A DNA stretch of 64,000 bases from Pirellulales bacterium (GTDB lineage: Bacteria; Planctomycetota; Planctomycetia; Pirellulales; UBA1268): contig JBIIOK010000001.1 of assembly GCA_044336985.1 (NCBI GenBank), positions 4,998 through 68,997 on the forward strand, in the 5' to 3' direction. Positions 4,378-25,100 of this stretch are shown piece by piece. Within the stretch, counting starts at the first letter, position 1. Each line of letters begins with the position of its first letter. The position numbers and the translations under genes were made by a program. The notes under the pieces are model-generated. The model did not search any database. It saw only the letters and a list, made by a program, of their open reading frames with translations, and was not told the DNA's origin.

Positions 4378-4480
4378 GAACAGATGTATATTTTCTTGCC
4401 AAAGCCTTGTCAAGTTACCTAGCCTTCGAGGGTGGTGCTATTGGCCGTACCTCGCTTCCCCGCAATAGGTGCAGTGAAAT

Positions 4481-5033: not shown

Positions 5034-5092
5034 GGTGCCAGCCACCAAATCTGGGTAATTTGGCAAATTGCCCAGATTTGGTGGCTGGCACC
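5034..5092. repeat. REP doublet (15-nt spacer)
   Basis: Forward 22-mer at 5034-5055 and exact reverse complement at 5071-5092. The spacer TAATTTGGCAAATTG is itself nearly palindromic. Confidence 0.9.
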
Positions 5093-5175
5093 GGAATTTC
5101 CGGGAGGGGATCGGGGCGGAATTTTGAGCCGTCGCGCTAAACTGTTACGGGTCCCTCGACACGTTGGCCTCCGAG

Positions 5176-7349: not shown

Positions 7350-7352
7350 AAC

Positions 7353-7410
7353 GGTGCCAGCCACCAAATCTGGGTAATTTGCAAACTACCCAGATTTGGT
7401 GGCTGGCACC
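7353..7410. repeat. REP doublet (14-nt spacer) starting 3 nt after the anti-sigma stop codon
   Basis: Forward 22-mer at 7353-7374 and exact reverse complement at 7389-7410. This 22-bp-stem hairpin sits between the anti-sigma gene and the dehydrogenase gene. Confidence 0.9.
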
Positions 7411-7421: not shown

Positions 7422-10400
7422 ATGAAACAGACTACCGGAACGTTGTGGGCTGTCGCGGCGGCCCTCGCGATCGCCTGGCTCGTGGCCCCCGCGGCCGCGG
7501 CACCGGTGCCCTGGACCGCCTCGAATGTGAAGGGCACGCCGGAGCCGCCGCCCCCATTCCGCACGAAGAAAGTCTACGAGCACCTGCGGTTCGGGTCGGC
7601 CACCTCGCTGGCCTTCGCTCCCGGCAGCGACCGGGTCTTCGTGACCGAGCAATGGGGCAAGGTCTACTCGATCCCGGCCGACCGCGACTGCCGCCGGGCC
7701 GACCCGTTCGTCGACATCGCCGACCTCGTCAAGCGGCTCAATGTCGGCCGGTCCGACGCGGATCTGCTCCGGCCGTGGAACATCTTCCATCTCGCCTTCC
7801 ACCCCGACTTCGCCACCAACCGCTTCTGCTATCTCTGCTACACGATCGGCTACCGCGACGAGTCGCGGCCCTTTCCGAACGGCACGCGAGTGGTGCGGCT
7901 CGAGGTGATCGACGACGGCGGCGTGCCGCGGGCCGATCCGGCGAGCGAGGTCGAGATCATCACCTGGCCGTCCGGCGGCCACAACGGCGGTTGCCTCGCC
8001 TTCGGCCCCGACGGCATGCTCTACGTGTCGGCCGGCGACGGGGCCGATCATTTTCCGGCGGACCCGCACAAGACCGGGCAGGACCTCACCGACCTGCGGG
8101 CCTCGATCATGCGGATCGACGTCGATCATCCGACGAGTGGCCGCGGCTATTCGATCCCCGCCGACAACCCCTTCGTCGACGTGCCCGGAGCCCGCGGCGA
8201 ACTCTATTCCTTCGGCAACCGCAACATTTGGAAGATGAGCTTCGACCGAAAGACGGGCGAACTCTGGGCCGGCGACGTGGGGCTCGAGGTGTGGGAGCTC
8301 GTCTGCCGCGTGAAGGCGGGCGAGAACTACGGCTGGAGCATCGTCGAGGGCGCGAACCCCATCCATCCCGACTGGCCGCGGGGCCCGGCGCCGATCGCGA
8401 AGCCCTGGTGCCAGGTGCCGCACACGGCCGGGGCCTCGATCACCGGCGGCTTCGTCTATCGCGGCAAGAGGTTTCCGGAGCTCGTCGGCCGCTACGTTTT
8501 CGGCGACTGGGTGACCCGCCGCGTGTGGAGCATCGGCACGACCGGCGACGGGCCGGGCCCGCTCGTCGATCTCGTCGCCCCCACGATCCGCGTGGTCGCC
8601 TTCGCCGAGGATCGCGACGGCGAGATCTTCATCCTCGACTACGACGACGGCTCGATCCACGAGATCCTGCCCAACGACGAGGTGGCCGATGCGGGAAAGT
8701 TTCCCGAGCGGCTCTCCGAGACCGGTCTCTTTGCCGATACCGCGAAGCAGCAGCCGATGCCCGGCGTGACGCCGTTCGAGATCGCGGCCGAGGCCTGGGC
8801 CGACCATGCAAAGTCCCGCCGGTTCATCGGCCTCCCCGGCACGGGCAGTGTCAAGCTCAATCCGGGCAAGAAGCCGGTGCAGGGGTCGATGTTTTCCACG
8901 AGTCTCAACTATCCGCCGGGCACCGTGCTCGCCAAGACGTTTTCGATGCGGATGCGGGAGGATGATCCGCAGAGCGACCGCAAGCTCGAAACGCAGCTGC
9001 TCCACTTCGACGGCCGCCACTGGCACGGCTATTCATACGCCTGGAACGAGGCGGGCACCGACGCCGACCTCGTGGCGACCGAGGGGAAGAGCCTGCCGCT
9101 CGAGATCGCCGACGCCCGCGCGCCGGGCGGCAGGCGGGAGCAGACCTGGCGGTTTCTCGGCCGCAACGAATGCCAGCGATGCCACAACGAGTGGGCCGGG
9201 ACGTCGCTCGCCTTCGACGTCGCCCAGCTCAATCGAGACGTGCCGGCAGCGGGCGACGGCAAGGCGGTGAACCAGCTCCGCGAATTTCGCGCCCGCGGCC
9301 TCTTGGAGGACGTCGTCATCAAGCCGAATCTCGAGGCCGACCCCTTCGACACCATCCAGCGGCCCGGCTCCGAGGACACGCTGCCGCGGTTCCCCGATCC
9401 TCACGATCCCACCGCCGCGCTCGACGCGCGGGCGCGGGCCTACCTGCACACCAACTGCGCCGGCTGCCACCGCTTCGGCGGCGGCAGCGTGCCGCACGTC
9501 CACCTCAACACGGAGATCGTCACCGCGGATCTGGAGGTGCTCGGGATGCGGCCGGCGCGGGGCGACTTCGCCATACCCGAGGCCCGCGTGATCGCCCCGG
9601 GCGAGCCCCATCGTTCGACGCTCTGGTATCGCATGGCGACGTCCGGCCCCGGCCGGATGCCGCACATCGGCGCCGAACTGGTCGACGAGGCCGGGCTCGC
9701 CCTCGTCCGCGAGTGGATCGCGTCGCTGCCCCCCGATTCCATCGAGCGGCGGCTCGTCGCCCGGCTCGTTGCGATCGACGAGCAGGCCGTGCTCGCGAAG
9801 GAGAGCGCCGACGCGCCGCGGGAGCGGTTGCAGATGGCCCGCAAGATCGCCGCCGAAGCCAAGCGGACGCAGCCCGACGACGCCGACCTCGCGGCGGCCG
9901 AGAAGCAGCGGCTCGAAGCGGCCGCCGCACGGGCGGAACAACGGCTCGCCGAACGGCGGCAACTCCTGACGAAACTGCTCGGCTCGACGGGCGGCGCGGC
10001 GACGCTCGCCGACGCGCTCGTCGCCGGCCGGTTGCCGGCGGCGACCCGCGAATTCGTGCTCGACGGGATCGGCGCGGCCGATACCGTCGTCATCGGTCTC
10101 TTCGAAAGGTTCCTGCCGCCCGAGCGCCGGGTGCGACGCTTGGGCGCGGCGATCGACCCGCAGACGATCCTGTCGGTCGCCGGCGACGCCGACCGCGGCC
10201 GGTCGCTCTTCGCCGAATCGAGCGCGGTGCAGTGCCGCACCTGCCATGCCGTCGGCGGGCAGGGAGGCGCGGTCGGCCCGGCGCTCGACCGCGTCGCCAC
10301 GCGGCTCGACCGGCAGAAAATCCTCGAAAGCCTGCTCGAGCCGTCGAAGACGATCGCGCCCGAGTACCGCACGTGGCTGGCGGTCACGGACGACGGCCGC

Positions 10401-10601
10401 AGCGTGACGGGGCTCATGGTGAAGCGGACCGACGAGACCGTCTCGATCGTCGATGCCGCGGGTAAACTGACCGAGCTGGCCGCCGCGACGATCGACGAGC
10501 TCGAGCCGCTGCCTACGTCGCTCATGCCCGAACAACTGCTTCGAGACCTGTCGGCCGGTCAGGCCGCGGACCTGCTTGCCTACCTGGAGTCTTTGCGATG
10601 A
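7422..10601 (+). CDS. Secreted PQQ-dependent sugar dehydrogenase-like beta-propeller fused to multi-heme-motif cytochrome c / Pirellula-Verrucomicrobium-type heme-binding domain
   Basis: 1059 aa. Signal peptide: MKQTTGTLWAVAAALAIAWLVAPAAAA. GSDH-like blocks: GGHNGGCLAFGPDGMLYVSAGDG, NPFV..GELYSFGNRNIWKMSFD, YGWSIVEG. Middle region: LSETGLFADTAKQQPMPGVTPFEIAAEAWADHAKSRRFIGLP. Three CxxCH motifs: CQRCH, CAGCH, CRTCH. C-terminal part: ...SLMPEQLLRDLSAGQAADLLAYLESL. Confidence 0.85.
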   Translation: MKQTTGTLWAVAAALAIAWLVAPAAAAPVPWTASNVKGTPEPPPPFRTKKVYEHLRFGSATSLAFAPGSDRVFVTEQWGKVYSIPADRDCRRADPFVDIADLVKRLNVGRSDADLLRPWNIFHLAFHPDFATNRFCYLCYTIGYRDESRPFPNGTRVVRLEVIDDGGVPRADPASEVEIITWPSGGHNGGCLAFGPDGMLYVSAGDGADHFPADPHKTGQDLTDLRASIMRIDVDHPTSGRGYSIPADNPFVDVPGARGELYSFGNRNIWKMSFDRKTGELWAGDVGLEVWELVCRVKAGENYGWSIVEGANPIHPDWPRGPAPIAKPWCQVPHTAGASITGGFVYRGKRFPELVGRYVFGDWVTRRVWSIGTTGDGPGPLVDLVAPTIRVVAFAEDRDGEIFILDYDDGSIHEILPNDEVADAGKFPERLSETGLFADTAKQQPMPGVTPFEIAAEAWADHAKSRRFIGLPGTGSVKLNPGKKPVQGSMFSTSLNYPPGTVLAKTFSMRMREDDPQSDRKLETQLLHFDGRHWHGYSYAWNEAGTDADLVATEGKSLPLEIADARAPGGRREQTWRFLGRNECQRCHNEWAGTSLAFDVAQLNRDVPAAGDGKAVNQLREFRARGLLEDVVIKPNLEADPFDTIQRPGSEDTLPRFPDPHDPTAALDARARAYLHTNCAGCHRFGGGSVPHVHLNTEIVTADLEVLGMRPARGDFAIPEARVIAPGEPHRSTLWYRMATSGPGRMPHIGAELVDEAGLALVREWIASLPPDSIERRLVARLVAIDEQAVLAKESADAPRERLQMARKIAAEAKRTQPDDADLAAAEKQRLEAAAARAEQRLAERRQLLTKLLGSTGGAATLADALVAGRLPAATREFVLDGIGAADTVVIGLFERFLPPERRVRRLGAAIDPQTILSVAGDADRGRSLFAESSAVQCRTCHAVGGQGGAVGPALDRVATRLDRQKILESLLEPSKTIAPEYRTWLAVTDDGRSVTGLMVKRTDETVSIVDAAGKLTELAAATIDELEPLPTSLMPEQLLRDLSAGQAADLLAYLESLR

Positions 10602-13600
10602 CGATCCCGAAGCGACTGGTGTCTGCATTGCTCGCGTTCGCGAGCCTGGTCTCGATTGCCGTGGCGGCGCCGCCCGCCGCGACCGGCCCGGACCTCACGA
10701 TCGGGCTCAAGAAATCGGACATCGACCTCGCGGCCTGCAAGGCCTGGGTAGACGGCAAGGAGTCCGAGGGCGACTTCAACAACGGCATCCTCGCCACGCT
10801 CGGGCTGGTCGAAGGGAATCCGTGGACGGCGATCCATTACAGCAAGGCGCAGGAAGCCAAGGTCATCGAGTATCTCGTGGTGCTCAAGAAGCCGGTGAAG
10901 TTTCGCGCGCTGCTCTTTCAAAAAGAAGGCACGCTGCGGTACCTGAAGCCGGGTGCGTCCCTGCCGGCGGATTCCGCCAAGGCAGAAAGCTGGTCGGAGG
11001 TGACGTTTCCGCCGAACCAGTCGGGCTGGCGGCTGGCGACGGTGGCGGGCGAATCGCAGGCCTTTCTCTGCACGGTCAAGAACGACCGGTACGGCTGGGA
11101 TCCCTTCACCTTCCTGCGGCTCATGAAGCCGCGGCTCTACAACATCGTGCCCGAGGGGCTCGCCAATGGCGAGGCGGAATACGTCGCGTATGCGGCGGTC
11201 GGCCCGCCGGCGTACCACAAGGCGTCGTTCATCGTCACCGGCGCGGGCTCCTGGCAGAGCCACGGCCCCGACAAAGACACCGGCCGCACGCCGCGGCCGC
11301 CGGTGACCGATATCGACCCGACCTGGTTCGTGGTCTCGTGGGACGAGCCGCGGACGATCTCGGGCCTCCTGCTCGCGTCGAACTTCAAGACCTTCAAGGT
11401 CTATGCCTACACGGGCCCGGCCGGCATCAACCCGGCCGTGGCCGGTCCGCAGGCCTGGACGCGGATCAAGGGAGACCCGCGGGCCGACGGCGGCGCCGCT
11501 CTGCTGACGTTTCCGCCGATCACCACGCGGGGGCTCAGGTTCGTGGCGGAAGCGACCATCAAGAATAACGAGGTGGAGCCTCGCTGGGGCACGATCTCCG
11601 GGCTACAGGTGTTCACCGACTTGGGCGACGCGCCGGTGCCGGAATTCAAGCCGGCCGCCGCGGCGGAATCGCCGCCGCTCGCGATCGAGCTCACGCTGCC
11701 CGAGAAGGGGATCGTTTCGATGGCCATCGACGGCCCCGACGGGCGGCGGGTGCGGAATATGCCCGCACGGCTGGAGATGGAGGGTGGAAAGCAGACCGTC
11801 GGCTGGGATCTCAAGGACGAGAACGGCGGCCACGTGGCCCCGGGAAGTTACACCTGGAAGGCGATCACGCATCCCGGCCTCGAGGTGAAATACCAGATGA
11901 CGTCCTATCCAAACGTCGAGATGGTGACCAAGGAGAATGCGCCCTGGCGCCTCAACGATCCTGGTCCCGACGGCTGGCTGGCCGATCACTCGCCGCCGCG
12001 GGCGGTGTGTGTGGCGGGCGACGACCGGGTCTTCCTGGCGTCTCAGTGTGCCGAGAGCGGCGTGGCGTTGATCGAGTGCGATCTCGACGGCCGCAAGCAC
12101 TGGGGCCACGGCAACATCATCGCCTGGACCGGGCCGGCATACCTGGCCAGCGACGGCAAGGACCTCTACGCCATGCCCGAGTCGAGAGGCCACTTCGAGC
12201 TCCAGGGGCAGGTCGATCATGTCTGGCGATTCTCGCTGCCGGAGAAGAAGCTCGACACGTCCTTCACGCTCAACGCCACCGCCACGCGGAAGCGGGGCGT
12301 TAGCGGCATGGCCGTCCGCGACGGGAAGCTCTACGTCGCCGTGAACGCGGGGGACACCTGGCTCGAGAACGCGTTTGCCGCGTCGATCGTGGACCAGGAC
12401 AACTGCGAGCCGAAATACCCGAAGCCGACGAAGAGCACCAACATGCTTCAGGATCCGCTGCCCCGTGCCGACTTCCTGCGGCTCCTGCGGCTCACCGGCA
12501 CGCCGCCGGGAGGGAATGGCCTTGCATACCTGGAGACCGCGAAGCAGCCGGCGGCCCGGCAGCACATCGTGATCGCGCTCGAGAGGGAGGCGCCGATCGG
12601 CAGCTTCGTGTTTCCGCTGCCGGAGGTGAAGGATCTGCAGATGGTCGTGAGCGTCTTGAAGCCGGGCGCCGCGTATCCGCCGAAGCCAAACAAGGACGCC
12701 GACTGGCAGCGGGTCTACGCCGGCAAGGGCAAGGGCTGGACCGTCGTCACGGCGCCGGAGAAGACGGTGACCCGCGCGATCCGGCTGAGTTTCGACAAGG
12801 GGCTCGACGAACTCGACGAGGCGGTCCTCGACGACGAGGGGGATCCGGCCCTCGATGGCGGTCTCGGCGACGCGGCGGGTGATGCTGACTCCAAGGAAAA
12901 GAACAAGGCCGCCTGGTTCGCCCAGCTCGAGGGGATGAAGATCCTCAGTCGCCGGTTCGAGAATCTTTTCCCCACGTGCAAAGTGACGGTCAATTCCGGC
13001 ACGGTGACGCCGGAGGGGGAATGGGATGCCAATCGCGAAAAGCCGCTCACGTCCGAGAACCCCGGCGTCTACATGATGGAGTGGGATGCGCCGCAGCCGA
13101 TCCGGGGCCTCGCGATCAAGGAGATCGACGGCCGGTTCACTGAGATCGACGCCTGGACGGGCGCAGGCTCTCCCGACATGAAGGCCGTCAAGGGCTGGGA
13201 GAAGCTCGCGAGCTACGAGCAGAAGCTCCGCTACTACTTCAACCCCGACCAGAACCACAACAGCAAGGCCCGCTACATCGACGGCTATGTCGATTTCGGC
13301 CGCGACGTCTCGACACGGGCCATCCGGATGCGGGTCACCGAACAGTGGATGTGGAGGGAAGGCGACCGCGCGGGCGTCGTGGGCGTGCGGATTGACCGCG
13401 GCGGCCCGACACTCGATCCGACCCGCTGTCGGATCTACGGCGTGGCGCCGCTCAAGTCCGTGGGAGGCGAGCCGCCGGTCGACCTGCTCGCGACGCAACG
13501 CATCGAGGTCTATGACGTGGCGACCAAGAAGCTCGTCAAGGAGATCCCGTTCTCCGAGGGGAGCGACATCGCGTTCGCCCCGGATGGATCGCTCTACGGC

Positions 13601-15889
13601 ATCTCCGCCGGGAAGGTGGTGAAGGTGGACGTGGAAGGGGGCAAGCACGTGCCGCTGCCGCTCGACGTGGGTCGGCCCACGGCGATCACGTGTGGCAGGA
13701 CGGGCGAACTGTTCGTGTTCGACAGCGCGCGAGACCAGCGGGTGATCCGCGTCTTCGACTCCTCAGGCAAGCCGCTGCGGACGATCGGCACGCCGGGCGG
13801 GAGGATCGTCGGGCCGTACGACCCGATGCGGTTCACGAGCAGCGCCAACGTGGCCGTGGATCTCGCCGTTGACGCGAAGGATCAACTCTGGGTGGTGGAG
13901 TGCGACGAGACGCCGAGGCGGGTGAGCCTGTGGGGCGTGGACGGCACGTTCAAGAAGGACCTGCTCGGCAACACGGGCTACGGCGGCGGAGGCGTCCTCG
14001 ACCCCTACGACCACTCGCGGCTTTACTACACGACCTTCAGTGGCGGCGGGCTCGAGTTCGCGCTCGACTGGAAGACCGGGGCCACGGCGCTCAAGAGAAT
14101 TCTCTGGCAGGGCGACACACCGGCCGGAGAGCAGGCCATCCGGATCAAGGACCGCGATTACCTCGTGACGAGAGCGCACTTCCAGACGCAGCCGGCGGGG
14201 ATCGTCTATCTCCAGGAGAAAGACCGGCTGAAGTGCGTGGCGGCGATGGGAGCGGCCGACAGTTTCCCGCCGCTGCGGACCTCGGCCATCCTCGAAAAAC
14301 TCGGCCGCAAGCCCCTCGGAACGCAGGGGTTCCTCTGGAGCGATCGCAGCGGCGACGGCACGCCGCAGGCCGACGAAGTGGAATTCTTCGACATTCCCGA
14401 CAGACGTGCCGCGCACGTCGGCCGGTTCGACGAGACGCTCGGCGTCGATTCGCCCAAGTTTCGCTACGAGGTGAAGGAGATCCTCTTGAACGGCGCCCCG
14501 GTCTACGAGCGGAAGAAGAAGGCCTTTGGCTCCGGCGTGGTGCGGATGAACGACGGCCGGTTCTTCGTGGTCGGTGACAACGAGAAGATGGCCGCCGTCG
14601 ACGCCGACGGCAAGGCCGGCTGGACGCATCCGACCGAGAGCTGGGGCGGGCAAGCGATATCCTCGGCGAAGAGGCCCTGGTTCCCGGGCCAGACGGTGGC
14701 CCAGTTCGACGTCGTGGGCCACGAGACGGCCACGAAGGGGGATCTCGGCGAGTTCTTCGTGACCAACGGCAACTGCGGTACCTGGCACATCTGGACGGCC
14801 GACGGCCTGCTCGCGGGCCGGATCTTCTCCGACCTGTTGGGCCCTGTGAAGCAAACCTGGAGCAGGGAGCACGACCGCGGGTTCGACCTGACCGGCGTGT
14901 CGCTCGGGCAGGAGCACTTCCGCGGCGCTTTCTGCCAGTCCCGCGAGAACGGCAGGTTCTACGGCGTGGTCGGCCACAACAACATCAGTGTCGTCGAGGT
15001 GCAGGGCTTCGAGAAGTTCAAGCGGCTCGGCGGCGCGATCACGGTGACGCAGAAGGACGTCGATGAGGCCATGGAGTGGGATCGCAAGGTGCAGGCGCGG
15101 AAGCTCCACGAGGCGGCGAAATTGATCGAATGCCGCCGGCGAAAGGGGGGCATCACGGCCGACGGCAATCCCGCCGAGTGGGATTTCACGAGCGCCGCGC
15201 TCGAAGGCCGCGACGCCGCGCTCGCCATGGCCTACGACGAAAAGAACCTCTATGTCTGCTTCACGGTGCAGGGCTCGGGGCCGCTCAAGAACATGGGCAA
15301 CCGCTGGCAGCGGCTTTTCAAGAGCGGCGCGGCGGTGGACCTGCAGATCGGCGTCGATCCGAAGGCCGACGTGCAGCGGAAGGCGCCCGCCGTGGGCGAC
15401 TGCCGCCTGCTGATGACGATGACGAGCGAGGGCCCGACGGCGGTGCTCTACCAGCCCAACAAGCCCGATGCCAAGCCGGACGAGGCGTGGCAGACGCGGA
15501 CGGATGTGGCGTACGCGGGCTTCGACCGCGTCGTGAAGCTGCCGGAGGTGAAACTGGCGGCGAAGGGCGACGAGAGGGGCTACTGCGCCGAGGCCGTGAT
15601 TCCGCTCGCGGCCCTCGGGCTCACGATCGTGCCGGACGTCACCTACAAGTTCGACTGGGGCATCCTCGCGGGCGGCCCGGAGGGCAACGCGGTGCTCCAG
15701 CGACTCTACTGGGCCAACCCCCAGACGGCGATGCTCAGCGACGAGCCGATCGAGGCGCAGCTCCACCCGGATCTCTGGGGCACGGTGCGGTTTTCGGCGG
15801 GCGGCGGCAGCAAGGGCAAGCCCGAACTCGACATGGAGACGAAGCTCGGCGGCGACGACGACTTCAAGCTCGACCCCGACGAAGAATAG
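10598..15889 (+). CDS. Giant secreted multidomain protein, paralog A (discoidin/F5-8C-like modules, FlgD-Ig-like domain, NHL/beta-propeller repeats, C-terminal CBM9/DOMON-like domain); no recognisable catalytic domain
   Basis: 1763 aa. The ATGA overlap with the dehydrogenase stop indicates translational coupling. Signal peptide: MTIPKRLVSALLAFASLVSIAVA. FlgD-Ig-like: IVSMAIDGPDGRRVRNMPARLEMEGGKQTVGWDLKDENGGHVAPGSYTWKAI. NHL-like: DIAFAPDGSLYGIS..., GELFVFDSARDQRVIRVFDSSGKPLRTIG. C-terminal part: ITADGNPAEWDF...YDEKNLYVCFTV...GYCAEAVIPLAALG...WGTVRF. Confidence 0.85.
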   Translation: MTIPKRLVSALLAFASLVSIAVAAPPAATGPDLTIGLKKSDIDLAACKAWVDGKESEGDFNNGILATLGLVEGNPWTAIHYSKAQEAKVIEYLVVLKKPVKFRALLFQKEGTLRYLKPGASLPADSAKAESWSEVTFPPNQSGWRLATVAGESQAFLCTVKNDRYGWDPFTFLRLMKPRLYNIVPEGLANGEAEYVAYAAVGPPAYHKASFIVTGAGSWQSHGPDKDTGRTPRPPVTDIDPTWFVVSWDEPRTISGLLLASNFKTFKVYAYTGPAGINPAVAGPQAWTRIKGDPRADGGAALLTFPPITTRGLRFVAEATIKNNEVEPRWGTISGLQVFTDLGDAPVPEFKPAAAAESPPLAIELTLPEKGIVSMAIDGPDGRRVRNMPARLEMEGGKQTVGWDLKDENGGHVAPGSYTWKAITHPGLEVKYQMTSYPNVEMVTKENAPWRLNDPGPDGWLADHSPPRAVCVAGDDRVFLASQCAESGVALIECDLDGRKHWGHGNIIAWTGPAYLASDGKDLYAMPESRGHFELQGQVDHVWRFSLPEKKLDTSFTLNATATRKRGVSGMAVRDGKLYVAVNAGDTWLENAFAASIVDQDNCEPKYPKPTKSTNMLQDPLPRADFLRLLRLTGTPPGGNGLAYLETAKQPAARQHIVIALEREAPIGSFVFPLPEVKDLQMVVSVLKPGAAYPPKPNKDADWQRVYAGKGKGWTVVTAPEKTVTRAIRLSFDKGLDELDEAVLDDEGDPALDGGLGDAAGDADSKEKNKAAWFAQLEGMKILSRRFENLFPTCKVTVNSGTVTPEGEWDANREKPLTSENPGVYMMEWDAPQPIRGLAIKEIDGRFTEIDAWTGAGSPDMKAVKGWEKLASYEQKLRYYFNPDQNHNSKARYIDGYVDFGRDVSTRAIRMRVTEQWMWREGDRAGVVGVRIDRGGPTLDPTRCRIYGVAPLKSVGGEPPVDLLATQRIEVYDVATKKLVKEIPFSEGSDIAFAPDGSLYGISAGKVVKVDVEGGKHVPLPLDVGRPTAITCGRTGELFVFDSARDQRVIRVFDSSGKPLRTIGTPGGRIVGPYDPMRFTSSANVAVDLAVDAKDQLWVVECDETPRRVSLWGVDGTFKKDLLGNTGYGGGGVLDPYDHSRLYYTTFSGGGLEFALDWKTGATALKRILWQGDTPAGEQAIRIKDRDYLVTRAHFQTQPAGIVYLQEKDRLKCVAAMGAADSFPPLRTSAILEKLGRKPLGTQGFLWSDRSGDGTPQADEVEFFDIPDRRAAHVGRFDETLGVDSPKFRYEVKEILLNGAPVYERKKKAFGSGVVRMNDGRFFVVGDNEKMAAVDADGKAGWTHPTESWGGQAISSAKRPWFPGQTVAQFDVVGHETATKGDLGEFFVTNGNCGTWHIWTADGLLAGRIFSDLLGPVKQTWSREHDRGFDLTGVSLGQEHFRGAFCQSRENGRFYGVVGHNNISVVEVQGFEKFKRLGGAITVTQKDVDEAMEWDRKVQARKLHEAAKLIECRRRKGGITADGNPAEWDFTSAALEGRDAALAMAYDEKNLYVCFTVQGSGPLKNMGNRWQRLFKSGAAVDLQIGVDPKADVQRKAPAVGDCRLLMTMTSEGPTAVLYQPNKPDAKPDEAWQTRTDVAYAGFDRVVKLPEVKLAAKGDERGYCAEAVIPLAALGLTIVPDVTYKFDWGILAGGPEGNAVLQRLYWANPQTAMLSDEPIEAQLHPDLWGTVRFSAGGGSKGKPELDMETKLGGDDDFKLDPDEE

Positions 15890-15973
15890 GATGCCGCGGC
15901 GAAGCCGGGCCGCGAGGGGCGATTGCCAGCTCGGCGGTGGTACACTCGATGATCCCGGGAATACGACGAATCG

Positions 15974-16183
15974 ATGAAGCGTTCGACCGAACAGCCGGCG
16001 CGGCTGAGCGTCACTGACCAGGTGTCGCAGGCACGTGCCGATCGTGCGGCATGGCAGGCCTGTACGCCTGAAGAACGCCTCGACGCCGTCGAGGCCTTGA
16101 GGCTGCAGGCTGGGAAGTTCATCTATGAATACCCAACCAGACTTCGAAGACTTCTTACGATTACTCGAAGTTCATCGCGTTGA
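15974..16183 (+). CDS. Small conserved hypothetical protein, upstream partner of the nucleotidyltransferase-fold gene
   Basis: 69 aa with an ATG start. ADRAAWQACTPEERLDAVEALRLQAGKFIYEYPTRLRRLLTITR matches a small-protein pattern I recall (..yW.s.TPEERL.AlE.LR....y....RLqRvl.i..) that is usually found just upstream of this nucleotidyltransferase family. It overlaps the next gene by 59 nt. Confidence 0.5.
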   Translation: MKRSTEQPARLSVTDQVSQARADRAAWQACTPEERLDAVEALRLQAGKFIYEYPTRLRRLLTITRSSSR

Positions 16184-16565
16184 GTACATGATCGTGGGGG
16201 GCTACGCGGTCGCGTATCACGGCTTTCCGCGATTCACGAAGGACATAGACATCTTCTTTTCCGATGGCGATGAGAACCTCGTGCGCCTCCAGGCGGCGCT
16301 CGTGGCCTTCGGCTTTCAGCCAGCGACCGTGCCCGTCGAGACGTTGGGGAAACCCGACGCGGTGTTGGCGGTCGGCGTGGAGCCGGTGCGGATCGACCTC
16401 CTCAACAGGATCGACGGGGTGACCTTCGACGAGGCACGGTCCTCCACGGTTCGAGGCCGCTACGGAGCCGTCGAGGTGACGTTCATCGGCAAGGAGCATT
16501 TGCTGCGGAACAAGCGTGCCACGGGAAGGCACCGTGATTTGGGCGACGTGGACGAACTGCTCTGA
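16125..16565 (+). CDS. Nucleotidyltransferase-fold protein (DUF6036-like; possible toxin-antitoxin-type cassette component)
   Basis: 146 aa. N-terminus: MNTQPDFEDFLRLLEVHRVEYMIVGGYAVAYHGFPRFTKDIDIFF (GG...hG.pR.TkDiDi motif). C-terminus: LLRNKRATGRHRDLGDVDEL. It lies between the two giant paralogs. Confidence 0.7.
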   Translation: MNTQPDFEDFLRLLEVHRVEYMIVGGYAVAYHGFPRFTKDIDIFFSDGDENLVRLQAALVAFGFQPATVPVETLGKPDAVLAVGVEPVRIDLLNRIDGVTFDEARSSTVRGRYGAVEVTFIGKEHLLRNKRATGRHRDLGDVDELL

Positions 16566-16601
16566 GCGGCGGGCTGTCGCTCCGCCGGATCAGTGGCCGA
16601 G

Positions 16602-16623
16602 CCCAGATTTGGTGGCTGGCACC
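16602..16623 (-). repeat. REP element copy (single, reverse orientation)
   Basis: Exact CCCAGATTTGGTGGCTGGCACC at 16602-16623, 36 nt after the nucleotidyltransferase stop and about 100 nt upstream of giant paralog B. Confidence 0.85.
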
Positions 16624-16658
16624 TTTTTCGTTTCGTGTAACCGTTGGCGGCTTTCACT

Positions 16659-16694
16659 CATTATAGTGGCGGCCGACATTATATTGGCGGCCGA
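16659..16694 (+). repeat. Tandem 18-bp direct repeat (CATTATAgTGGCGGCCGA / CATTATAtTGGCGGCCGA) in the leader of giant paralog B; candidate regulatory site
   Basis: Two head-to-tail copies at 16659-16676 and 16677-16694, 17/18 identical. A third partial TTGGCGGC lies at 16644-16651. Each unit carries a TATAGT/TATATT -10-like hexamer. This is an AT-rich island 33 nt upstream of the ATG at 16727. Confidence 0.6.
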
Positions 16695-16726
16695 GCGGTC
16701 CCACGCACCATCGGGAGTGTTTTTCG

Positions 16727-19700
16727 ATGAATCGCCGTATTACTTCATGGCTCGCGGTTCTCTCGATCCTCGCCGGACTCGCGGCCGAGGCCGCGGCGGC
16801 GCCGCCCGCCGCGACCGGGCCGGACCTCTCGATCGGGCTCAAGAAGTCGGACATCGATCTCGAGGCCTGCAAGGCGTTTGTCGACGGCAAGGAGGCCGAG
16901 GGCGACTTCAAGAACGGCATCCTCGCCACGCTGGGGCTCGCTGGAGGGAATCCGTGGACCGCGATCCAACCCAGCAAGTGGAAGGAACACAAGGTCATCC
17001 AGTATCTCGTGGTGCTCAAGCGGCCGGTGAAGTTCGGCGCGGTGCTCTTCCAGAAGAACGGCACCATGCAGTACCTGAAGCCGGGCGAGGCCCTGCCGCC
17101 GGATCCCGCCAAGGCAGAAAGCTGGTCGGAGGTGACGTTTCCGCCGAACCAGTCGGGCTGGCGGCTGGCGACCGCCGCGGGCGAGTCGCAGGCCTTTCTC
17201 TGCACCGTGAAGAACGACCGGTACGGCTGGGATCCCTTCACGTTCCTGCGGCTCATGAAGCCGCGGCTCTACAACATCGTGCCCGAGGGGCTCGCCAACG
17301 GTGAGGCGGAATACGTCGCGTATGCGCAGTTTAGTCCGCCGACGTACTACAAGGCGGCGAACATCGTCGCCGGCAAGGGCTCCTGGCAGAGCCATGGCCC
17401 GGACGACACCGGCCGCGTGCCGCGGCCCCCGGTGACCGATATCGACCCGACCTGGTTCGTGGTGTCGTGGAACGAGCCACGGGAGATTTCCGGGATCCTC
17501 CTGAATTCAAACTTCGTGAATTTCAAGATGTATTCCTACAAGGGACCGCCCGGCATCAACCCGGCGGTGGCCGGCCCGCAGGACTGGGCACGGATCAAGC
17601 AGGAGCCACGGTCGGACGGCGGAGCCGCCGTGATCACGTTTCCGCCGATCACGACGCGGGGACTGCGGTTCGTGGCGGAAGCGACCAGGTCGACGGGCGG
17701 TCCCAACGGAACCGCTCGCTGTGGCGCGATCTCGGGGCTGCAGGTGTTCGCCGACCTCAAGGAGGCGGCTGTGCCGAAGCTCGAGGTGGCGGGGCAGGCA
17801 CCGCCGCTGGCGATCAAGTTTGCACTGCCGGAGAAGGCGATCGTGTCGATGGCCGTCGACGGCTCCGACGGCCGCCGGGCGCGGAATTTTCCCGCGCGGC
17901 TGGAGATGGATGCCGGCGAGCAGACGGTGGGCTGGGATCTCAAGGACGAGAGCGGCAGCTTCGTGGCTCCGGGCAGTTACACGTGGAAGGCGATCACGCA
18001 TCCCGGGCTGCAGCTCAAATATGAGATGACGCCGTACCCCAACGTCGAGATGCTGACGAAGGACAACTCGCCGTGGCCGAACGGGGATAGCGGCCCCGGC
18101 GGCTGGATGGCGAACCATACGCCGCCGCGCGCAGTCTGCGCCGCGGGCGCGGACCGGGTCTTCCTGGGCGCCCAAATGTGCGAGGGTGGCTCGGCCCTGA
18201 TCGAGTGCGATCTCGAGGGGCGCAAGGCTTGGGGGCACAGCAACATGATCCCCTGGACCGGACCGGCCTTCCTCGCGAGCGACGGCAAAGACGTCTATGC
18301 CATGCCCACGGTGGCGGGGGGCTTCGCCTTCAAGGGGCTGGTCGATTACGTCTGGCGGTTCACGCTGCCGGAGAAGAAGCTCGACACGCCCTTCAAGCTC
18401 GAGGCCAGCGCCACCCGACAGCGCGGCGCCACTGGCCTGGCGGTTCGCGACGGCAGGCTCTACGTCGCGGTGAACGCAGGAACCGACTGGCTGGAAAACG
18501 CGTTTGACCCGGGAATCGTCGACCAGGACAACTGCGAGCCGAAGTATGCGAAGCCGGTGAAGGCAGACGCGTTTGCACCCGACCGCCGCGAGGACTTCCT
18601 GCGACTGCTGCGGCTCACCCGCGCGCCGGCGGGCCAAGACCTGATCTATCTCGAGACCGCGAAGCAGCCGGCGGCCCGGCAGCACATCGTGATCGCGCTC
18701 GAGAGCGAGACGCCGATCGGGAGTTTCGTCTTTCCGCTGCCGGAGGTGAAGGACCTGCAGATGATCATCAGCGTCTTGAAGCCGGGCGCCGCCTATCCGC
18801 CGAATCCAAACAAGGACGCCGACTGGCAGCGGTTGTATGCCGGCAAGGGGAAGGGGTGGACCGTGGTGCCGGCGCCCGAGAAGACGCTGACGCGGGCCAT
18901 CCGCCTGAGCTTCGACAAGGGGCTCGATGAACTCGACGAGGCGGCTCTGGGCGGCGAATTGGGCGACGACGGGGGGCCAACCCTCGACGGCGGGCTGGAC
19001 CTGGGCGACAAGGGGGACGGCGCGGGCTCCAACGACAAAAACAAGGCCGCCTGGTTCGCCCAGCTCGAGGGCATGAAGATCCTCCGGCGCCGCTTCGAGA
19101 ATCTCTTCCCCACCTGCAAGGTGAGCGTGAATTCCGGCACGGTCACGCCGGAGGGGGAGTGGGAGGCGAACCGCGAGAGGCCGCTGACGTCCGAGAATCC
19201 CGGCATCTACATGATGGAGTGGGATGCGCCGCAGCAGGTCCGCGGGCTGGCGATCAAGGAAGTCGACGGCCGCTTCACCGAGATCGACGCCTGGACTGGC
19301 GACGGCTCTCCCGACATGAAGGCCGACAAGGGCTGGGAGAAGCTCGCGACCTACGAGCAGGACCGGCGGTTGTACTACCACCCCGACAAGGCCTACAACC
19401 ACGCGGCCCGCTACATGGACGGCTATGTCGATTTCGGCCGCGACGTGACGACGCGCGCGCTCCGGATGCGGGTGACCGAACAGTGGCTGTCGAGCGATCA
19501 CGGCTATTACCCGATGGGAGTGCGGAGCGACCGTGGGGGCCGAACGCTCGATCCGACCCGCTGCCGAATCTACGGGGTGGCGGTGCTGCGGGTGGCGGGG
19601 GGCGATACTCCGGTCGACATCCTCGCGACCCAGCGGATCGAGGTCTACGATCTCACCACGAAGAAGCTCGTGCTGGAAATCCCGTTCCCCCAGGGGAGCG

Positions 19701-22033
19701 ACATCGCCTTCGCCCCGGATGGATCGCTCTACGGCATCTCCGACGGCAAGGTTGTGAAGATCGATATCGACGGAGGCAAGCATGTGCCGCTGCCACTCGA
19801 CGTGGGGCGGCCCACGGCGATCACGTGTGGCAAGGCCGGCGAACTCTTCGTGTTCGACAGTGCGGCCGACAAGCGTGTGATCCGCGTCTTCGACGCGGCA
19901 GGCAAGCCGCTGCGGACGATCGGCACGCCGGGCGGCCGGATCATGGGCCCCTACGATCCAAAGCGGTTCACGAGCAGCCCGGGCGTGGCGGTCGATCTGG
20001 CCGTCGATGCCCAAAACCAGCTCTGGGTGGTGGAGTGCGACTGGTCCCCGAAGCGGGTGAGCCTCTGGGGCGTGGACGGCACGTTCAAGAAGGACATGTT
20101 CGGCCCCACGGCCTACGGCGGCGGTGGGGCCCTCGATCCATTCGACAAGTCGCGGCTCTATTACGCACCGTACGACGGACACGGGCTCGAGTTCGCCATC
20201 GACTGGAAGACGGGGGCCACGGCCCTGAAGAACGTGCTTTGGCAGGGCAACGCGCGGGCCGGCGAGCAGGCCATTCAGATCAAGGATCGCCAGTACCTCG
20301 TGACGCGGCCGATGTTCACCGTCCAGCCGGCGGGAATCGTCTATCTCCGGGAGAAAGACCGGCTCAAGTGCGTGGCGGCGATGGGTCATGCCGGTGGCTT
20401 TCCCATGTTGAAGACGCCGGGGATCCTCGACAAGCTCGGCCGAAAGGCCCTCGGCGATGCCGGGTTTGTGTGGAGCGATCGCAGCGGCGACGGTGCCCCG
20501 CAGCCGGACGAGGTGGAATTTTTCGACGCGCCGGACGGTAGTGCCGTGGCCATCGGCAGGTTCGACGAGACGCTCGGCGTCGATTCGTCCAACTTCCGCT
20601 ATGAAGTGAAGGAGATCCTCGCCAACGGCACTCCGGCTTACGAGCGGAAAAAGAAGGCTTTCAATTCCCGCGTGGTGCGGATGGACGACGGCCGGTTCTT
20701 CGTCGTCTTCGACAACCAGCGGATGGCCGCCGTCGATGCCGACGGGAAGGCCGCCTGGACGCATCCGGTGGAAGGCTGGGGCGTGCACGCGATCGCCGGT
20801 GCCAAGACGCCGTGGTATCCGGGCCAGGCCGTGGCGCAGTTCGACGTCATCGGCCATGAAACGGCGACGGCGGGCGATCTGGGGGAGTTCTTCGTGACGA
20901 ACACCAACTGCGGCACGTGGCACATCTGGACCGCCGACGGGCTCTTGGCCGGCCGGATTTTCCAGGACCTCCTCGGCCCGAACAAGAAGCCGTGGAGCAT
21001 GAAGGAGCACGACCGCGGGCTCGACCTGACCGACGTGACGGCGGGCCAGGAGCACTTCAACGGCTCCTTCTGCAAGACCCGCGAAGACGGGAAGTTCTAC
21101 GTCGTCGCCGGCGGCATCACCACCAGCGTCGTCGAGGTGCAGGGCTTCGAAAAGTTCAAGCGGCTCGGGGGGGCGCTGACGGTGACCCAAAAAGACGTCG
21201 ACGCGGCCATGGAATGGGATCGCAAGGTGCAGTCGCGGAAGCTCTACGAGGCGGCGAAGATGATCGAGTGCCGACGGCGGAAGGGCGGGATCACGATCGA
21301 CGGCAATCCCGCCGATTGGGAATTCACGACTGCGGCGCTCGATGGCCGCGACGCTTCACTCGCCATGGCCTATGACGACGCGAACCTCTACGTCTGCTTC
21401 AACGTGCGCGGATCAGGGCCGCTCAAGAACACGGGCAACGACTGGCATCGCCTCTTCAAGACCGGCGCGTCGGTCGACCTGCAGATCGGCGTCGATCCGC
21501 AGGCCGACGTGAAGCGGAAGATTCCGGCCGTGGGCGACTGCCGCCTGCTCATGACCATGACGGACGAGGGGCCGACGGCGGTGCTCTACCAGCCGAACAA
21601 GCCGGGCTCCAAGCCGGAGGAGGAATGGGAGGCGGTGACGGGCGTGGCCCAGGCGGCCTTCGACCGCGTGGCGAAGCTGCCAGACGTGCGGATGGCGGCG
21701 CGGGGCGGCGAGAATGGCTACTGCTTGGAAGCCATGATTCCGCTCAAGTCGCTGGGGCTCGAGATCGTGCCGGATGTGCCCTACAAGTTCGACTGGGGCA
21801 TCCTCGTGAGCGGACCGGATGGCAGCGAGGTGCTCGAGCGACTCTACTGGGCCAACCCCCAGACGAGGATGCTGTCGGACGAGGCGATCGAAGCGAAGCT
21901 CCATCCGGATCTCTGGGGCACGGTGCGGTTCGCAACGGGCTCCGGCCGCAAGGGGCAGCCCGATCTCGACATGGAGAAGAAACTCGGCGGCGAGTTGGAC
22001 GACGACTTCGAGCTCGACCCCGACGAGGAATAA
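16727..22033 (+). CDS. Giant secreted multidomain protein, paralog B (same architecture as 10598-15889)
   Basis: 1768 aa. Signal peptide: MNRRITSWLAVLSILAGLAAEAAA. It is colinear with paralog A over its full length. By hand alignment, about 24 differences fall in the first ~175 mature residues. It has the same FlgD-Ig, NHL and C-terminal CBM9-like blocks and ends in ...DDDFELDPDEE (A ends in ...DDDFKLDPDEE). Confidence 0.85.
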   Translation: MNRRITSWLAVLSILAGLAAEAAAAPPAATGPDLSIGLKKSDIDLEACKAFVDGKEAEGDFKNGILATLGLAGGNPWTAIQPSKWKEHKVIQYLVVLKRPVKFGAVLFQKNGTMQYLKPGEALPPDPAKAESWSEVTFPPNQSGWRLATAAGESQAFLCTVKNDRYGWDPFTFLRLMKPRLYNIVPEGLANGEAEYVAYAQFSPPTYYKAANIVAGKGSWQSHGPDDTGRVPRPPVTDIDPTWFVVSWNEPREISGILLNSNFVNFKMYSYKGPPGINPAVAGPQDWARIKQEPRSDGGAAVITFPPITTRGLRFVAEATRSTGGPNGTARCGAISGLQVFADLKEAAVPKLEVAGQAPPLAIKFALPEKAIVSMAVDGSDGRRARNFPARLEMDAGEQTVGWDLKDESGSFVAPGSYTWKAITHPGLQLKYEMTPYPNVEMLTKDNSPWPNGDSGPGGWMANHTPPRAVCAAGADRVFLGAQMCEGGSALIECDLEGRKAWGHSNMIPWTGPAFLASDGKDVYAMPTVAGGFAFKGLVDYVWRFTLPEKKLDTPFKLEASATRQRGATGLAVRDGRLYVAVNAGTDWLENAFDPGIVDQDNCEPKYAKPVKADAFAPDRREDFLRLLRLTRAPAGQDLIYLETAKQPAARQHIVIALESETPIGSFVFPLPEVKDLQMIISVLKPGAAYPPNPNKDADWQRLYAGKGKGWTVVPAPEKTLTRAIRLSFDKGLDELDEAALGGELGDDGGPTLDGGLDLGDKGDGAGSNDKNKAAWFAQLEGMKILRRRFENLFPTCKVSVNSGTVTPEGEWEANRERPLTSENPGIYMMEWDAPQQVRGLAIKEVDGRFTEIDAWTGDGSPDMKADKGWEKLATYEQDRRLYYHPDKAYNHAARYMDGYVDFGRDVTTRALRMRVTEQWLSSDHGYYPMGVRSDRGGRTLDPTRCRIYGVAVLRVAGGDTPVDILATQRIEVYDLTTKKLVLEIPFPQGSDIAFAPDGSLYGISDGKVVKIDIDGGKHVPLPLDVGRPTAITCGKAGELFVFDSAADKRVIRVFDAAGKPLRTIGTPGGRIMGPYDPKRFTSSPGVAVDLAVDAQNQLWVVECDWSPKRVSLWGVDGTFKKDMFGPTAYGGGGALDPFDKSRLYYAPYDGHGLEFAIDWKTGATALKNVLWQGNARAGEQAIQIKDRQYLVTRPMFTVQPAGIVYLREKDRLKCVAAMGHAGGFPMLKTPGILDKLGRKALGDAGFVWSDRSGDGAPQPDEVEFFDAPDGSAVAIGRFDETLGVDSSNFRYEVKEILANGTPAYERKKKAFNSRVVRMDDGRFFVVFDNQRMAAVDADGKAAWTHPVEGWGVHAIAGAKTPWYPGQAVAQFDVIGHETATAGDLGEFFVTNTNCGTWHIWTADGLLAGRIFQDLLGPNKKPWSMKEHDRGLDLTDVTAGQEHFNGSFCKTREDGKFYVVAGGITTSVVEVQGFEKFKRLGGALTVTQKDVDAAMEWDRKVQSRKLYEAAKMIECRRRKGGITIDGNPADWEFTTAALDGRDASLAMAYDDANLYVCFNVRGSGPLKNTGNDWHRLFKTGASVDLQIGVDPQADVKRKIPAVGDCRLLMTMTDEGPTAVLYQPNKPGSKPEEEWEAVTGVAQAAFDRVAKLPDVRMAARGGENGYCLEAMIPLKSLGLEIVPDVPYKFDWGILVSGPDGSEVLERLYWANPQTRMLSDEAIEAKLHPDLWGTVRFATGSGRKGQPDLDMEKKLGGELDDDFELDPDEE

Positions 22034-22038
22034 ATAAA

Positions 22039-22111
22039 GGTGCCAGCCACCAAATCTGGGCAAGATGCGTAAGCGGCTTGCCCAGATTCTCCAGATTTGG
22101 TGGCTGGCACC
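22039..22111. repeat. REP doublet filling the convergent intergenic gap
   Basis: Forward 22-mer at 22039-22060 and a 21-nt reverse copy, CCAGATTTGGTGGCTGGCACC, at 22091-22111. The spacer contains GGGCAAG...CTTGCCC and a partial extra CCCAGATT. It starts 5 nt after the stop at 22033 and ends 3 nt before the stop of the minus-strand esterase gene. Confidence 0.9.
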
Positions 22112-22114
22112 TTT

Positions 22115-24586: not shown

Positions 24587-24663
24587 GTGTAAGTCCTCGG
24601 GGAGATACAGACCACCTCGTCGCTCGTCGCCCATCCTATCGCGAGTTGCCCCAGGGTTGCGGT

Positions 24664-25100
24664 TCACGCCTCCCGGAGCCGGGCGGCTGCGGCGGTCTCA
24701 AGACGCCTGAATTCCGGCACGGCCTCGCCGATGATCGCCGCATACAGGGAGGCGAGTTCATCGGGCAGGTAATCGTGACCCCCGGATTTCGGAGATCCCG
24801 CAGGGCGACCCACGTCGAGTGGTCGCTGATCAGGCCGACCTTTTCCATGCGCAGCAGCAGATCGCGGAACGTATCCGACACGTTCGCCTCCCGGACCCGC
24901 TCCCAGGTGCGAAAGAATTTGAGGCTCGATTCGAATGCCCTCAGGAATCGATCGCTGAGCGCGTCGTACGGCTCTCGTTCCTGCGGCGAGTAGATGCGGC
25001 CCGGAGTGAAAGGTGCATAAGCATCCGCCGACGCAAACACGAGTTCGAGTGCGGCCCGCAACTTGGCCTGCGAGTCGGCGAGAAGCGGCTCGACAGTCAT
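24664..25100 (-). pseudogene. HEPN-domain toxin (HepT-like) of an MNT/HEPN pair, interrupted by a 1-nt frameshift inside the Rx4H catalytic motif
   Basis: Frame 1 (from the ATG at complement 25098-25100) reads ...HSTWVALRDLRN-PG and then drifts into a Pro/Arg-rich tail (track ORF 24636..25100). From the run of 5 C at 24779-24783 (5 G on the coding strand), the -1 frame reads GHDYLPDELASLYAAIIGEAVPEFRRLETAAAARLREA*, with its stop at 24664-24666. One extra G would restore RDLRNPGGHDY, which fits RNxxxHxY. Confidence 0.7.

Follow-up and report, generated by a model that had tools for sequence, protein, structure and literature searches.

The 64,000-nucleotide stretch of DNA analysed here (the window; positions 4,998 to 68,997 of the forward strand of contig JBIIOK010000001.1, assembly GCA_044336985.1, from a Pirellulales bacterium) carries two giant genes, A and B, in tandem between a gene for a GSDH-cytochrome c fusion protein and a gene for an esterase. 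We consider it likely that A and B are old variants of one family residing in a recombination hot-spot slot, with a single tract of sequence exchanged between them. An initial annotation of the window had read the pair as a tandem duplication formed in place and evolving in concert, with the elements in the junction perhaps mediating the duplication. We regard that account as largely ordinary and as overstated; the notable part of the locus is the sharing of alleles across species within a hypervariable slot. The two genes are as follows.

10598-15889, plus strand: copy A, the first-slot giant gene, 1763 amino acids (open reading frame (ORF) and translation), in a clade with P0002-7 and P0009
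16727-22033, plus strand: copy B, the second-slot giant gene, 1768 amino acids, with its own leader, in a clade with P0008 and P0012

The slot lies within a syntenic order of genes that begins with a sigma factor, an anti-sigma factor and the GSDH-cytochrome c fusion, continues with the giant gene or genes, and ends with an esterase gene on the opposite strand and a tetratricopeptide repeat (TPR) gene. Its content in the window and five other loci is listed below.

Window: A, cassette, B
Locus L001: B', C'
Locus L016: P7 (D type), a C-like gene
Locus L015: C
Locus L022: C
Locus L019: P6 (D type)

The flanks of the five non-window loci are 98-99.3% identical to one another and 86-87% identical to the window, which argues that these loci represent one sister species. 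The giant genes of the same five loci differ by 16-23% of their nucleotides. A fixed place with conserved flanks is therefore filled with differing content, both among these five loci and between the window and a sixth locus, L006, considered below. These alignments show that what lies between the dehydrogenase and esterase genes varies from locus to locus. The junction on the left side is the same throughout: the first 4 nucleotides of A coincide with the end of the GSDH-cytochrome c gene, including its stop (7422-10601 versus 10598), in keeping with the annotated coupling of copy A to the dehydrogenase, and the same 4-nucleotide overlap with the first giant gene is present in L001, L015, L016, L019 and L022.

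The reading frames and their codon alignment bear out the annotated pair of colinear giant genes (1763 versus 1768 amino acids). A and B align with only 23 gapped columns, at 81.2% nucleotide and 75.6% amino acid identity. They belong to a family of proteins of about 1,750 amino acids with 164 detected members, whose taxon-labelled matches come from Planctomycetota, Verrucomicrobiota (Pedosphaera, Verrucomicrobiales), Lentisphaeria and Kiritimatiellia, plus one partial match labelled Betaproteobacteria. A scan of metagenomes with A returned three loci only, and a scan of genomes returned seven, the window's own genome not being among them.

B is not the closest sequence to A, several genes of other genomes being nearer. 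A neighbor-joining tree inferred from 26 full-length proteins places A with P0002-7 and P0009 and leaves B outside this group (bootstrap 97), while B is united with P0008 and P0012 (bootstrap 100). The C type branches outside A, B and D, even though in the sister species it is a tandem neighbour of these types. Outside alignment windows starting at codons 80-180, the nearest sequences to A are L6, P6, P2 and L7, and the nearest to B are P12, P7 and L6; along the greater part of the gene, neither co-resident copy has the other as its nearest relative. Synonymous divergence (dS, NG86 method) between A and B outside the exchange tract described below is 0.48, compared with 0.37 for the GSDH gene between the window and the sister species. 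The initial annotation was right that the A/B split is old, and these trees and distances show A and B to be long-separated lineages of one family, with no recent duplication between them.

Gene bodies at this locus also appear to have moved. B and the first gene of L001, B', are 97% identical at the nucleotide level, with an exact run of 1,608 nucleotides and a dS of 0.064, whereas their flanks are only 86-90% identical. The same near-identical version is thus present in two different backgrounds, and because B-B' identity far exceeds that of the flanks, the B gene body is likely to have moved recently between species. A second case is L006, whose flanks are 99% identical to window positions 16445-16744 and 22018-22147 and therefore belong to the window's own species. 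Its gene body is 87% identical to A, with patches of 93-95%, and only its first ~480 nucleotides are B-like (96%), so that an A-clade gene sits in the B slot of a sister strain. The comparison of L006 with the window suggests allele replacement within the window's own species.

The ends of the genes behave differently from their bodies. B' and P7, the first-slot genes of L001 and L016, share the same 5' end and signal peptide over ~140 nucleotides and then continue into B-type and D-type bodies, respectively. Likewise, the single-copy loci (C, L22, P6) have closely similar 5' ends regardless of body type. Signal peptides therefore seem to track the slot and not the gene body, and shared 5' ends joined to switched bodies are the expected product of intragenic crossovers. 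Permutation tests in the style of GENECONV give p ≤ 0.001 for the pairs B-L6, B-P12, A-L6, B-B' and C-C'. The single-copy loci plausibly arose via unequal crossover between tandem copies.

More distant relatives have another arrangement. In L002, L003 and L018, one giant gene lies directly 3' of the sigma and anti-sigma factor genes. The GSDH-cytochrome c gene is located several kb downstream of the giant gene in L002 and L003, and was not seen in the 10 kb downstream in L018. L003 additionally carries a duplicated block composed of sigma factor, anti-sigma factor and SBP_bac_10 genes.

Against this background of old and separately travelling lineages, one region stands out in which A and B resemble each other specifically.

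10974-11217, plus strand: core of the exchange tract, A side; 93% A-B identity, A+B+B' bootstrap 100, supported by a triplet walk
17106-17349, plus strand: core of the exchange tract, B side; offset by 6,132 nucleotides from the A side

Only 17 of the 244 core sites differ between A and B, and identity falls to 79% immediately 3' of it. Within the core, A and B are each 78-85% identical to every other lineage. A bootscan of 13 sequences recovers A, B and B' as a clade for window starts at codons 120-180 only, with bootstrap 100 at A positions 10976-11216, and a finer scan found nothing A-B-specific outside 11060-11270. The two genes share both synonymous and nonsynonymous states that are found in no other sequence compared. 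Amino acid differences between them amount to 8% inside the tract versus 24% outside, the fraction of identical codons is 0.90 versus 0.74 (Fisher p = 0.0012), and dS is 0.19 versus 0.48 (NG86). The tract sits in the first beta-sandwich domain of the protein. It is not a conserved domain, because 14 control pairs lack any such contrast between inside and outside, having 13-31% amino acid differences in the tract and no synonymous rise.

Triplet informative-site walks identify a B-like segment of A at 10660-11217 with four of six A-clade references (p ≤ 0.0005). With the other two, L20 and P5, the segment starts at ~10670 and extends further 3' (p = 0.001 and 0.017, respectively). These walks suggest a weaker 5' shoulder reaching back to ~10660, which would bring the A-B-specific region to about 250-560 of 5,300 nucleotides, or ~5-10% of the gene. 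A possible second tract near codons 1300-1380 reached a bootstrap of only 44, and was rejected, the finer scan having found nothing there.

B' shares the tract (A-B' identity 91%), which implies that the exchange predates the B/B' split or is approximately as old. The exchange itself appears to postdate the separation of the two sister species. Taken together, the clade support and the control-pair tests show one genuine A-B exchange tract. Real exchange between the copies had been correctly noted, and its extent is confined to this one A-B-specific region (core 10974-11217, shoulder from 10660), in which the paralogues cluster and synonymous divergence is lower, rather than amounting to partial homogenisation of the pair.

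Most of the remaining unevenness in A-B identity has other sources. The unevenness itself is not a chance effect (p ≤ 0.001, GENECONV-style permutation test on polymorphic sites), as the initial annotation had sensed, and a strongly diverged neighbouring segment that it singled out, ATIKNNEVEPRWGTISG versus ATRSTGGPNGTARCGAISG, is present. The longest run that it reported, 67 nucleotides at 10974-11040 and 17106-17172, is exact; when the longest runs of the 53 family pairs with 78-84.5% identity are ordered by length, it comes 10th (median 50, maximum 163 nucleotides). The 56-nucleotide run is likewise exact at A 11111-11166, with its B counterpart at 17243-17298, 10 nucleotides away from the annotated 17233-17288. 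A third region, 12530-12760, was thought to be a further near-identical tract of the pair and contains the following run.

12533-12585, plus strand: 53-nucleotide exact A-B run, equal to 18653-18705; a family-wide conserved block and not a conversion tract

The surrounding region has 85-91% A-B identity, and the identity peak at 12500-12800 extends across the family. In a sliding-window comparison of 14 pairs, A-P2 reaches 0.89-0.94 and B-P2 reaches 0.88-0.93, compared with 0.85-0.91 for A-B. In a codon display, the 53-nucleotide run hardly varies among the nine sequences, with the C type and synonymous sites included. Family-wide conservation, with A-P2 at least as high as A-B, rules out the 12530-12760 region as a conversion tract; judged by these alignments, it is a product of constraint and codon bias.

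Codon usage bears on all such runs. The giant genes have a GC content at third codon positions (GC3) of 0.88-0.90, and a GC3 of ~0.89 sets a floor of 0.56 for the fraction of identical codons at conserved degenerate residues under synonymous saturation. Because of this floor, synonymous-site identity is weak evidence in these genes. The nearest neighbours of A and B alternate in patches of up to 95-97% identity, with B patches matching P7, P12 and L6 and A patches matching L6 and P6. Much of the A-B unevenness can therefore be attributed to the mosaic ancestry of each copy, and the patchwork of alternating neighbours shows that both copies are mosaics.

The most variable segments of the genes are the signal peptide and the loops at amino acids 319-331, 607-626, 756-771 and 917-933. 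The first of these loops, which lies in the second discoidin-like domain (A 11552-11590, amino acids 319-331; B 17681-17725), is hypervariable and polymorphic in length. Its long STGGP-type variant is found in B, B', P12, P2, L20 and L6, a distribution that cuts across the lineage tree.

Structure prediction provides some indication of what these proteins might do. None of the family members has a Pfam domain above threshold, and comparison of the giant protein with Pfam, NCBIfam and PDB sequences gave only sub-threshold FlgD-Ig or PQQ matches. Copy A is predicted to begin with a signal peptide and to end in a C-terminal beta-sandwich, with CBM32/discoidin-like beta-sandwiches, an Ig-like domain and tandem beta-propellers between them. 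The signal-peptide-like N-terminus was judged by eye, and the folds come from AlphaFold2 models built from 64-sequence alignments, with predicted local distance difference test (pLDDT) scores of 82.7 (amino acids 1-900) and 83.7 (amino acids 861-1763). Foldseek matches the N-terminal half to tandem CBM32/discoidin structures (ZmpB CBM32-1 and CBM32-2, neuropilin b1b2, galactose oxidase) and the C-terminal half to tandem beta-propellers such as those of the BT4663 heparin sensor and LRP6. The giant proteins are probably secreted or surface glycan-binding proteins, judging from these models. Our search of the literature on giant genes and recombination in Planctomycetes found nothing specific to this protein family.

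The model that we favor is as follows. In uncultured freshwater Pirellulales-like planctomycetes, the slot between the GSDH-cytochrome c and esterase genes would hold one or two giant genes. Whole gene bodies and internal segments would be swapped by homologous recombination between the alleles of strains, between species and occasionally between two resident copies, with the conserved gene ends and conserved internal blocks serving as crossover sites. Unequal crossovers between tandem copies would plausibly yield the single-copy loci. The uneven identity of A and B would then combine family-wide conserved blocks, the mosaic ancestry of each copy and one A-B exchange tract, while the nucleotidyltransferase cassette and the palindromic repeats described below would be later, independent occupants of intergenic space. 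Selection for diversity on an exposed glycan-binding protein may drive the process.

Among the other explanations, the one that retains some plausibility, though we consider it appreciably less probable than not, is that B was acquired horizontally as a 5.5-kb segment placed beside a resident homologue, by accretion of a foreign allele and without any duplication. This segment is bounded by copies of a repetitive extragenic palindromic (REP)-like element.

7353-7410, strand not applicable: REP doublet, an inverted pair of 22-mers at 7353-7374 (plus) and 7389-7410 (minus), between the anti-sigma factor and dehydrogenase genes
16602-16623, minus strand: single REP, an exact 22-mer, at the left edge of the B segment
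22039-22111, strand not applicable: REP doublet, 22-mers at 22039-22060 (plus) and 22090-22111 (minus), between the convergent B and esterase genes
16598-22114, plus strand: B segment of 5.5 kb, consisting of REP (minus), leader, B and REP (plus)/REP (minus); missing where the cassette abuts the esterase gene

The 22-nucleotide element, GGTGCCAGCCACCAAATCTGGG, has 10 copies, compared with 0 expected by chance, most of which form inverted doublets (four in total) with members 36-51 nucleotides apart. All copies are intergenic and cluster near the locus (3636-7410, 16602-16623 and 22039-22111), and the inverted pairs can form hairpins, as is typical of REP-like palindromes. The doublet 3' of B has a predicted hairpin of -56.7 kcal/mol (z = -9.6) and, to judge from this fold, is probably a bidirectional terminator.

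Evidence for presence-absence variation of the B segment is provided by L023, where positions 1-926 correspond to window 15690-16597 (92% identity) and positions 931-1770 to window 22115-22954 (83%). The genes are ordered in the same way on a 31-kb contig that carries P0121. The window differs from L023 by a 5.5-kb insertion or deletion at 16598-22114. The REPs thus bracket a segment, with minus-strand copies at its bounds, that is present in some lineages and absent from others, and a role for these elements in moving B is possible. The sharing of B with another species at 97% identity, the presence of a separate leader with no coupling to the upstream gene, and the tandem placement of the C type beside A, B or D types despite its outgroup position would also fit acquisition from outside. 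However, in L023, which lacks B, the joint is also free of REPs, and a simple REP x REP recombination model does not fit as it stands. Moreover, two-copy arrays in both sister species are equally consistent with an ancestral two-slot array, and there is no integrase or transposase nearby. We also observe the heptamer TCAGTGG at both edges of the B segment in the window (16589-16595 and 22112-22118).

The leader of B had been described as AT-rich. B does have its own leader, with a GC content of 0.56-0.60 versus 0.67 for the genes, and is thus AT-richer in relative terms only. At 16630-16726 the leader contains three copies of a TGGCGGC(C/T) motif (GTTGGCGGCTTTCAC, AGTGGCGGCCGACA and ATTGGCGGCCGAGC), and no sigma-70-like promoter was found. 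The repeated motif could be an operator or a promoter element of the extracytoplasmic function (ECF) type. A scan of the window with Rfam found no family.

Far less support remains for the reading with which the locus was first presented, namely an in-place tandem duplication in which recurrent conversion keeps several tracts nearly identical and in which junction elements may have mediated the duplication. We consider this account improbable and, in its combination of duplication in place and recurrent conversion, largely refuted. The tandem colinear arrangement, the exchange tract with its bootstrap of 100 and raised synonymous identity, and the REPs that bracket the B segment are all features that it would explain. 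However, each copy shares its clade with genes of other genomes and not with its neighbour (bootstrap 97 and 100), their dS exceeds that of flanking sequence between species, B is 97% identical to a gene of another species, and an A-clade gene occupies the B slot of L006. Furthermore, there is a single A-B-specific tract, and the other long run is conserved family-wide.

Nor is a role of the junction elements in the duplication supported. The 837 nucleotides of the junction contain the annotated two-gene nucleotidyltransferase cassette and one REP, and the annotated REP doublet follows B.

15974-16183, plus strand: 69-amino-acid ORF, the upstream partner of the nucleotidyltransferase, without a family match
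16125-16565, plus strand: DUF2204-type nucleotidyltransferase, 146 amino acids (Pfam PF09970, 25.8 bits versus a cut-off of 20.3)

The larger protein is above the family threshold for this nucleotidyltransferase fold, and its AbiEii score of 22.3 is just below the cut-off of 22.5. Homologues are abundant (1,290 with E ≤ 1e-5, one of them named from Planctomycetia). The 69-amino-acid ORF has zero matches in Pfam, NCBIfam and PADLOC, but is intact and retained with the nucleotidyltransferase in L023, L024 and L025, with a 59-nucleotide overlap of the latter's start, and this two-gene overlap is conserved in four loci. We regard the pair as a putative toxin-antitoxin-like cassette. It resembles AbiEii/MNT-like toxin-antitoxin modules (Pfam DUF2204, DUF6036) in pairing a 146-amino-acid nucleotidyltransferase fold with a small overlapping upstream ORF, in having very many variants, and in its presence in toxin-antitoxin islands. 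It differs from them in that neither an antitoxin nor a HEPN domain is recognisable in the partner.

A copy of the cassette with 98% identity lies 3' of a single giant gene, abutting the esterase gene, in L023 and in the 31-kb contig that carries P0121, and a 91%-identical copy is found in toxin-antitoxin islands with HicA, BrnT and HEPN/MNT modules. Conversely, the tandem giant genes of L001 and L016 are separated by an identical, plain 72-nucleotide spacer with no cassette and no REP. Because of these 72-nucleotide junctions and the copies associated with a single giant gene or with toxin-antitoxin islands, the cassette is best seen as an independent toxin-antitoxin-like insertion and not as an agent of duplication, and the suggestion that junction elements mediated the duplication is not supported. 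Both one-copy and two-copy loci exist, and the cassette occurs independently of copy number.

Just upstream of the 69-amino-acid ORF, all cassette copies (L023, L024 and L025) carry the motif GGTGGTACA, located at 15935-15945 in the window. Since nucleotide homology among the cassettes begins there, the motif may be the promoter or the boundary of the cassette. A scan of the junction for promoters and terminators found nothing.

It is very unlikely that no exchange took place at all and that the uneven identity merely reflects uneven purifying selection combined with strong codon bias. The floor of 0.56 identical codons at a GC3 of 0.89, the conservation of the 12533-12585 block in all lineages, the fact that exact runs of ~50 nucleotides are typical of the family, and a silent-site-only permutation test that is not significant for A-B would agree with such a reading. 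However, the 14 other pairs are ordinary at 10974-11217, with 13-31% amino acid differences, whereas A-B has 8% and a fraction of 0.90 identical codons. In addition, A and B share derived states found in no other lineage, and the bootstrap of 100 and the triplet walk (p ≤ 0.0005) point the same way. For the core tract, the absence of exchange is refuted by the control-pair tests.

There is similarly little chance that the mosaics are chimeras of co-occurring strains or paralogues made during metagenome assembly. All of the sequences are metagenomic, and several of the contigs are short, with repeats at their ends. However, at least two long contigs carry the window arrangement, the A-B tract is 93% and not 100% identical and is common to B' of an independent ENA assembly, and consistent breakpoints, like the slot-specific 5' ends, are seen repeatedly in assemblies from JGI, ENA and Logan.

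Several considerations nevertheless weigh against our preferred model of old variants in a recombining slot. All comparators are metagenome contigs or metagenome-assembled genomes (MAGs), in which chimeric assembly could create or blur mosaic boundaries. L006 is only 5.7 kb long and ends at repeats, and the species assignments were made from 0.1-3 kb of flanking sequence. The NG86 estimates of dS are biased by a GC3 of ~0.89, and trees built from mosaic sequences represent averages. In the strict silent-site test, which is restricted to residues invariant in all sequences, A-B is not significant (p 0.7-0.9), and support for the tract therefore rests on nonsynonymous and synonymous sites together. 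Finally, since the tract is 78-85% identical to every other lineage, the exchange may have gone in either direction or passed through a third allele.

If the model of old, recombining variants is correct, a tempting reading has been corrected: similar neighbouring genes with identical runs seem to imply duplication and conversion, but at 89% GC3 in a recombining family most identical runs reflect constraint, codon bias or allele exchange with other genomes. The locus, with its clear boundaries and allelic variation, is well suited to population genomics of uncultured freshwater planctomycetes, and one of its alleles crosses a species boundary of ~87% nucleotide identity. The structural models also offer a first outline for a widespread, unannotated family of ~1,750 amino acids that is encoded in translational coupling with a gene for a sugar dehydrogenase-cytochrome c.

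A more speculative proposal, which we advance tentatively, is that the slot is a population-level diversity locus in which a sigma/anti-sigma/GSDH-cytochrome c module is combined with interchangeable giant lectin-like proteins, whose alleles would be held at intermediate frequencies and traded across species. In that event, alleles might be kept, for example, by negative frequency-dependent selection from phages or grazers, or by differing glycan substrates, and tandem copies would serve both as a reservoir of alleles and as a substrate for unequal crossover. The locus would then constitute a previously undescribed hypervariable system built on a family without Pfam domains in Planctomycetota, Verrucomicrobiota, Lentisphaerota and Kiritimatiellota.

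The genes that accompany the slot in the window are listed here.

5176-5694, plus strand: ECF-type sigma factor (Pfam Sigma70_r2, Sigma70_r4), which opens the conserved locus, with synteny to L015, L002 and L018
5691-7349, plus strand: FecR-like anti-sigma factor with a CBM9-like C-terminal part (Pfam FecR, E 1.6e-4; CBM9_1, E 2.8e-5)
7422-10601, plus strand: fusion of a glucose/sorbosone dehydrogenase (GSDH) with c-type cytochrome domains (Pfam GSDH, E 2.6e-35, and Cytochrom_C; NCBIfam TIGR03806 and TIGR02603)
22115-24667, minus strand: fused esterase ORF of 850 amino acids (Pfam DLH/AXE1/Peptidase_S9 plus GDSL), the conserved right border of the slot

The anti-sigma factor also has a weak NCBIfam anti-sigmaE match. 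Homology between its C-terminus and the C-terminal beta-sandwich of the giant protein was considered and rejected, the BLASTP match being not significant (E = 0.11). The esterase orthologues in L001, L015, L016 and L022 are split into genes of 425 and 374-442 amino acids. Elsewhere in the window, a duplicated two-gene module forms a second tandem paralogue pair (52020-57687 versus 57834-63054). This module encodes a PSD/PSCyt protein (DUF1592, DUF1588, DUF1587, DUF1585, DUF1595) and a DUF1552 (HXXSHH) protein, and the best nucleotide patches between its two copies are 71-78% identical.

Comparison with known systems places the slot closest to islands that are exchanged as alternatives at one site. 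The tufA and tufB genes of Salmonella and E. coli are homogenised by gene conversion over nearly their full length and represent a case of concerted evolution. A and B resemble them in having a discrete paralogue-specific identity tract that involves both synonymous and nonsynonymous sites of two co-resident homologues. They differ in that about 250-560 of 5,300 nucleotides are affected and each copy is closer to genes of other genomes.

Mosaic surface-protein genes formed by recombination between strains are found at the pneumococcal pspA/pspC loci and at the opa and pil loci of Neisseria. The giant genes share with these the block-wise mosaic alleles, the length-polymorphic hypervariable loops (amino acids 319-331) and the phylogeny-discordant sharing of variants. 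Unlike them, the slot has no silent donor cassettes and no phase-variation repeats, and it belongs to free-living freshwater planctomycetes and encodes proteins of ~1,750 amino acids.

Replacement flexible genomic islands have been described in aquatic prokaryotes, in which they are exchanged by homologous recombination (Lopez-Perez, Martin-Cuadrado & Rodriguez-Valera 2014, PMC4033161). The slot is like these islands in its fixed position and conserved flanks, in the occurrence of different versions in strains with near-identical flanks and of the same version across more divergent backgrounds, in recombination boundaries that lie in conserved sequence, and in a product that is plausibly exposed (predicted to be secreted and lectin-like). 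The difference lies in the unit of exchange, which here consists of one or two homologous giant genes instead of a non-homologous cluster such as those for O-antigen or glycosylation. Because these units are homologous, recombination can also occur inside the genes and between tandem copies, giving rise to fine mosaics and to changes in copy number.

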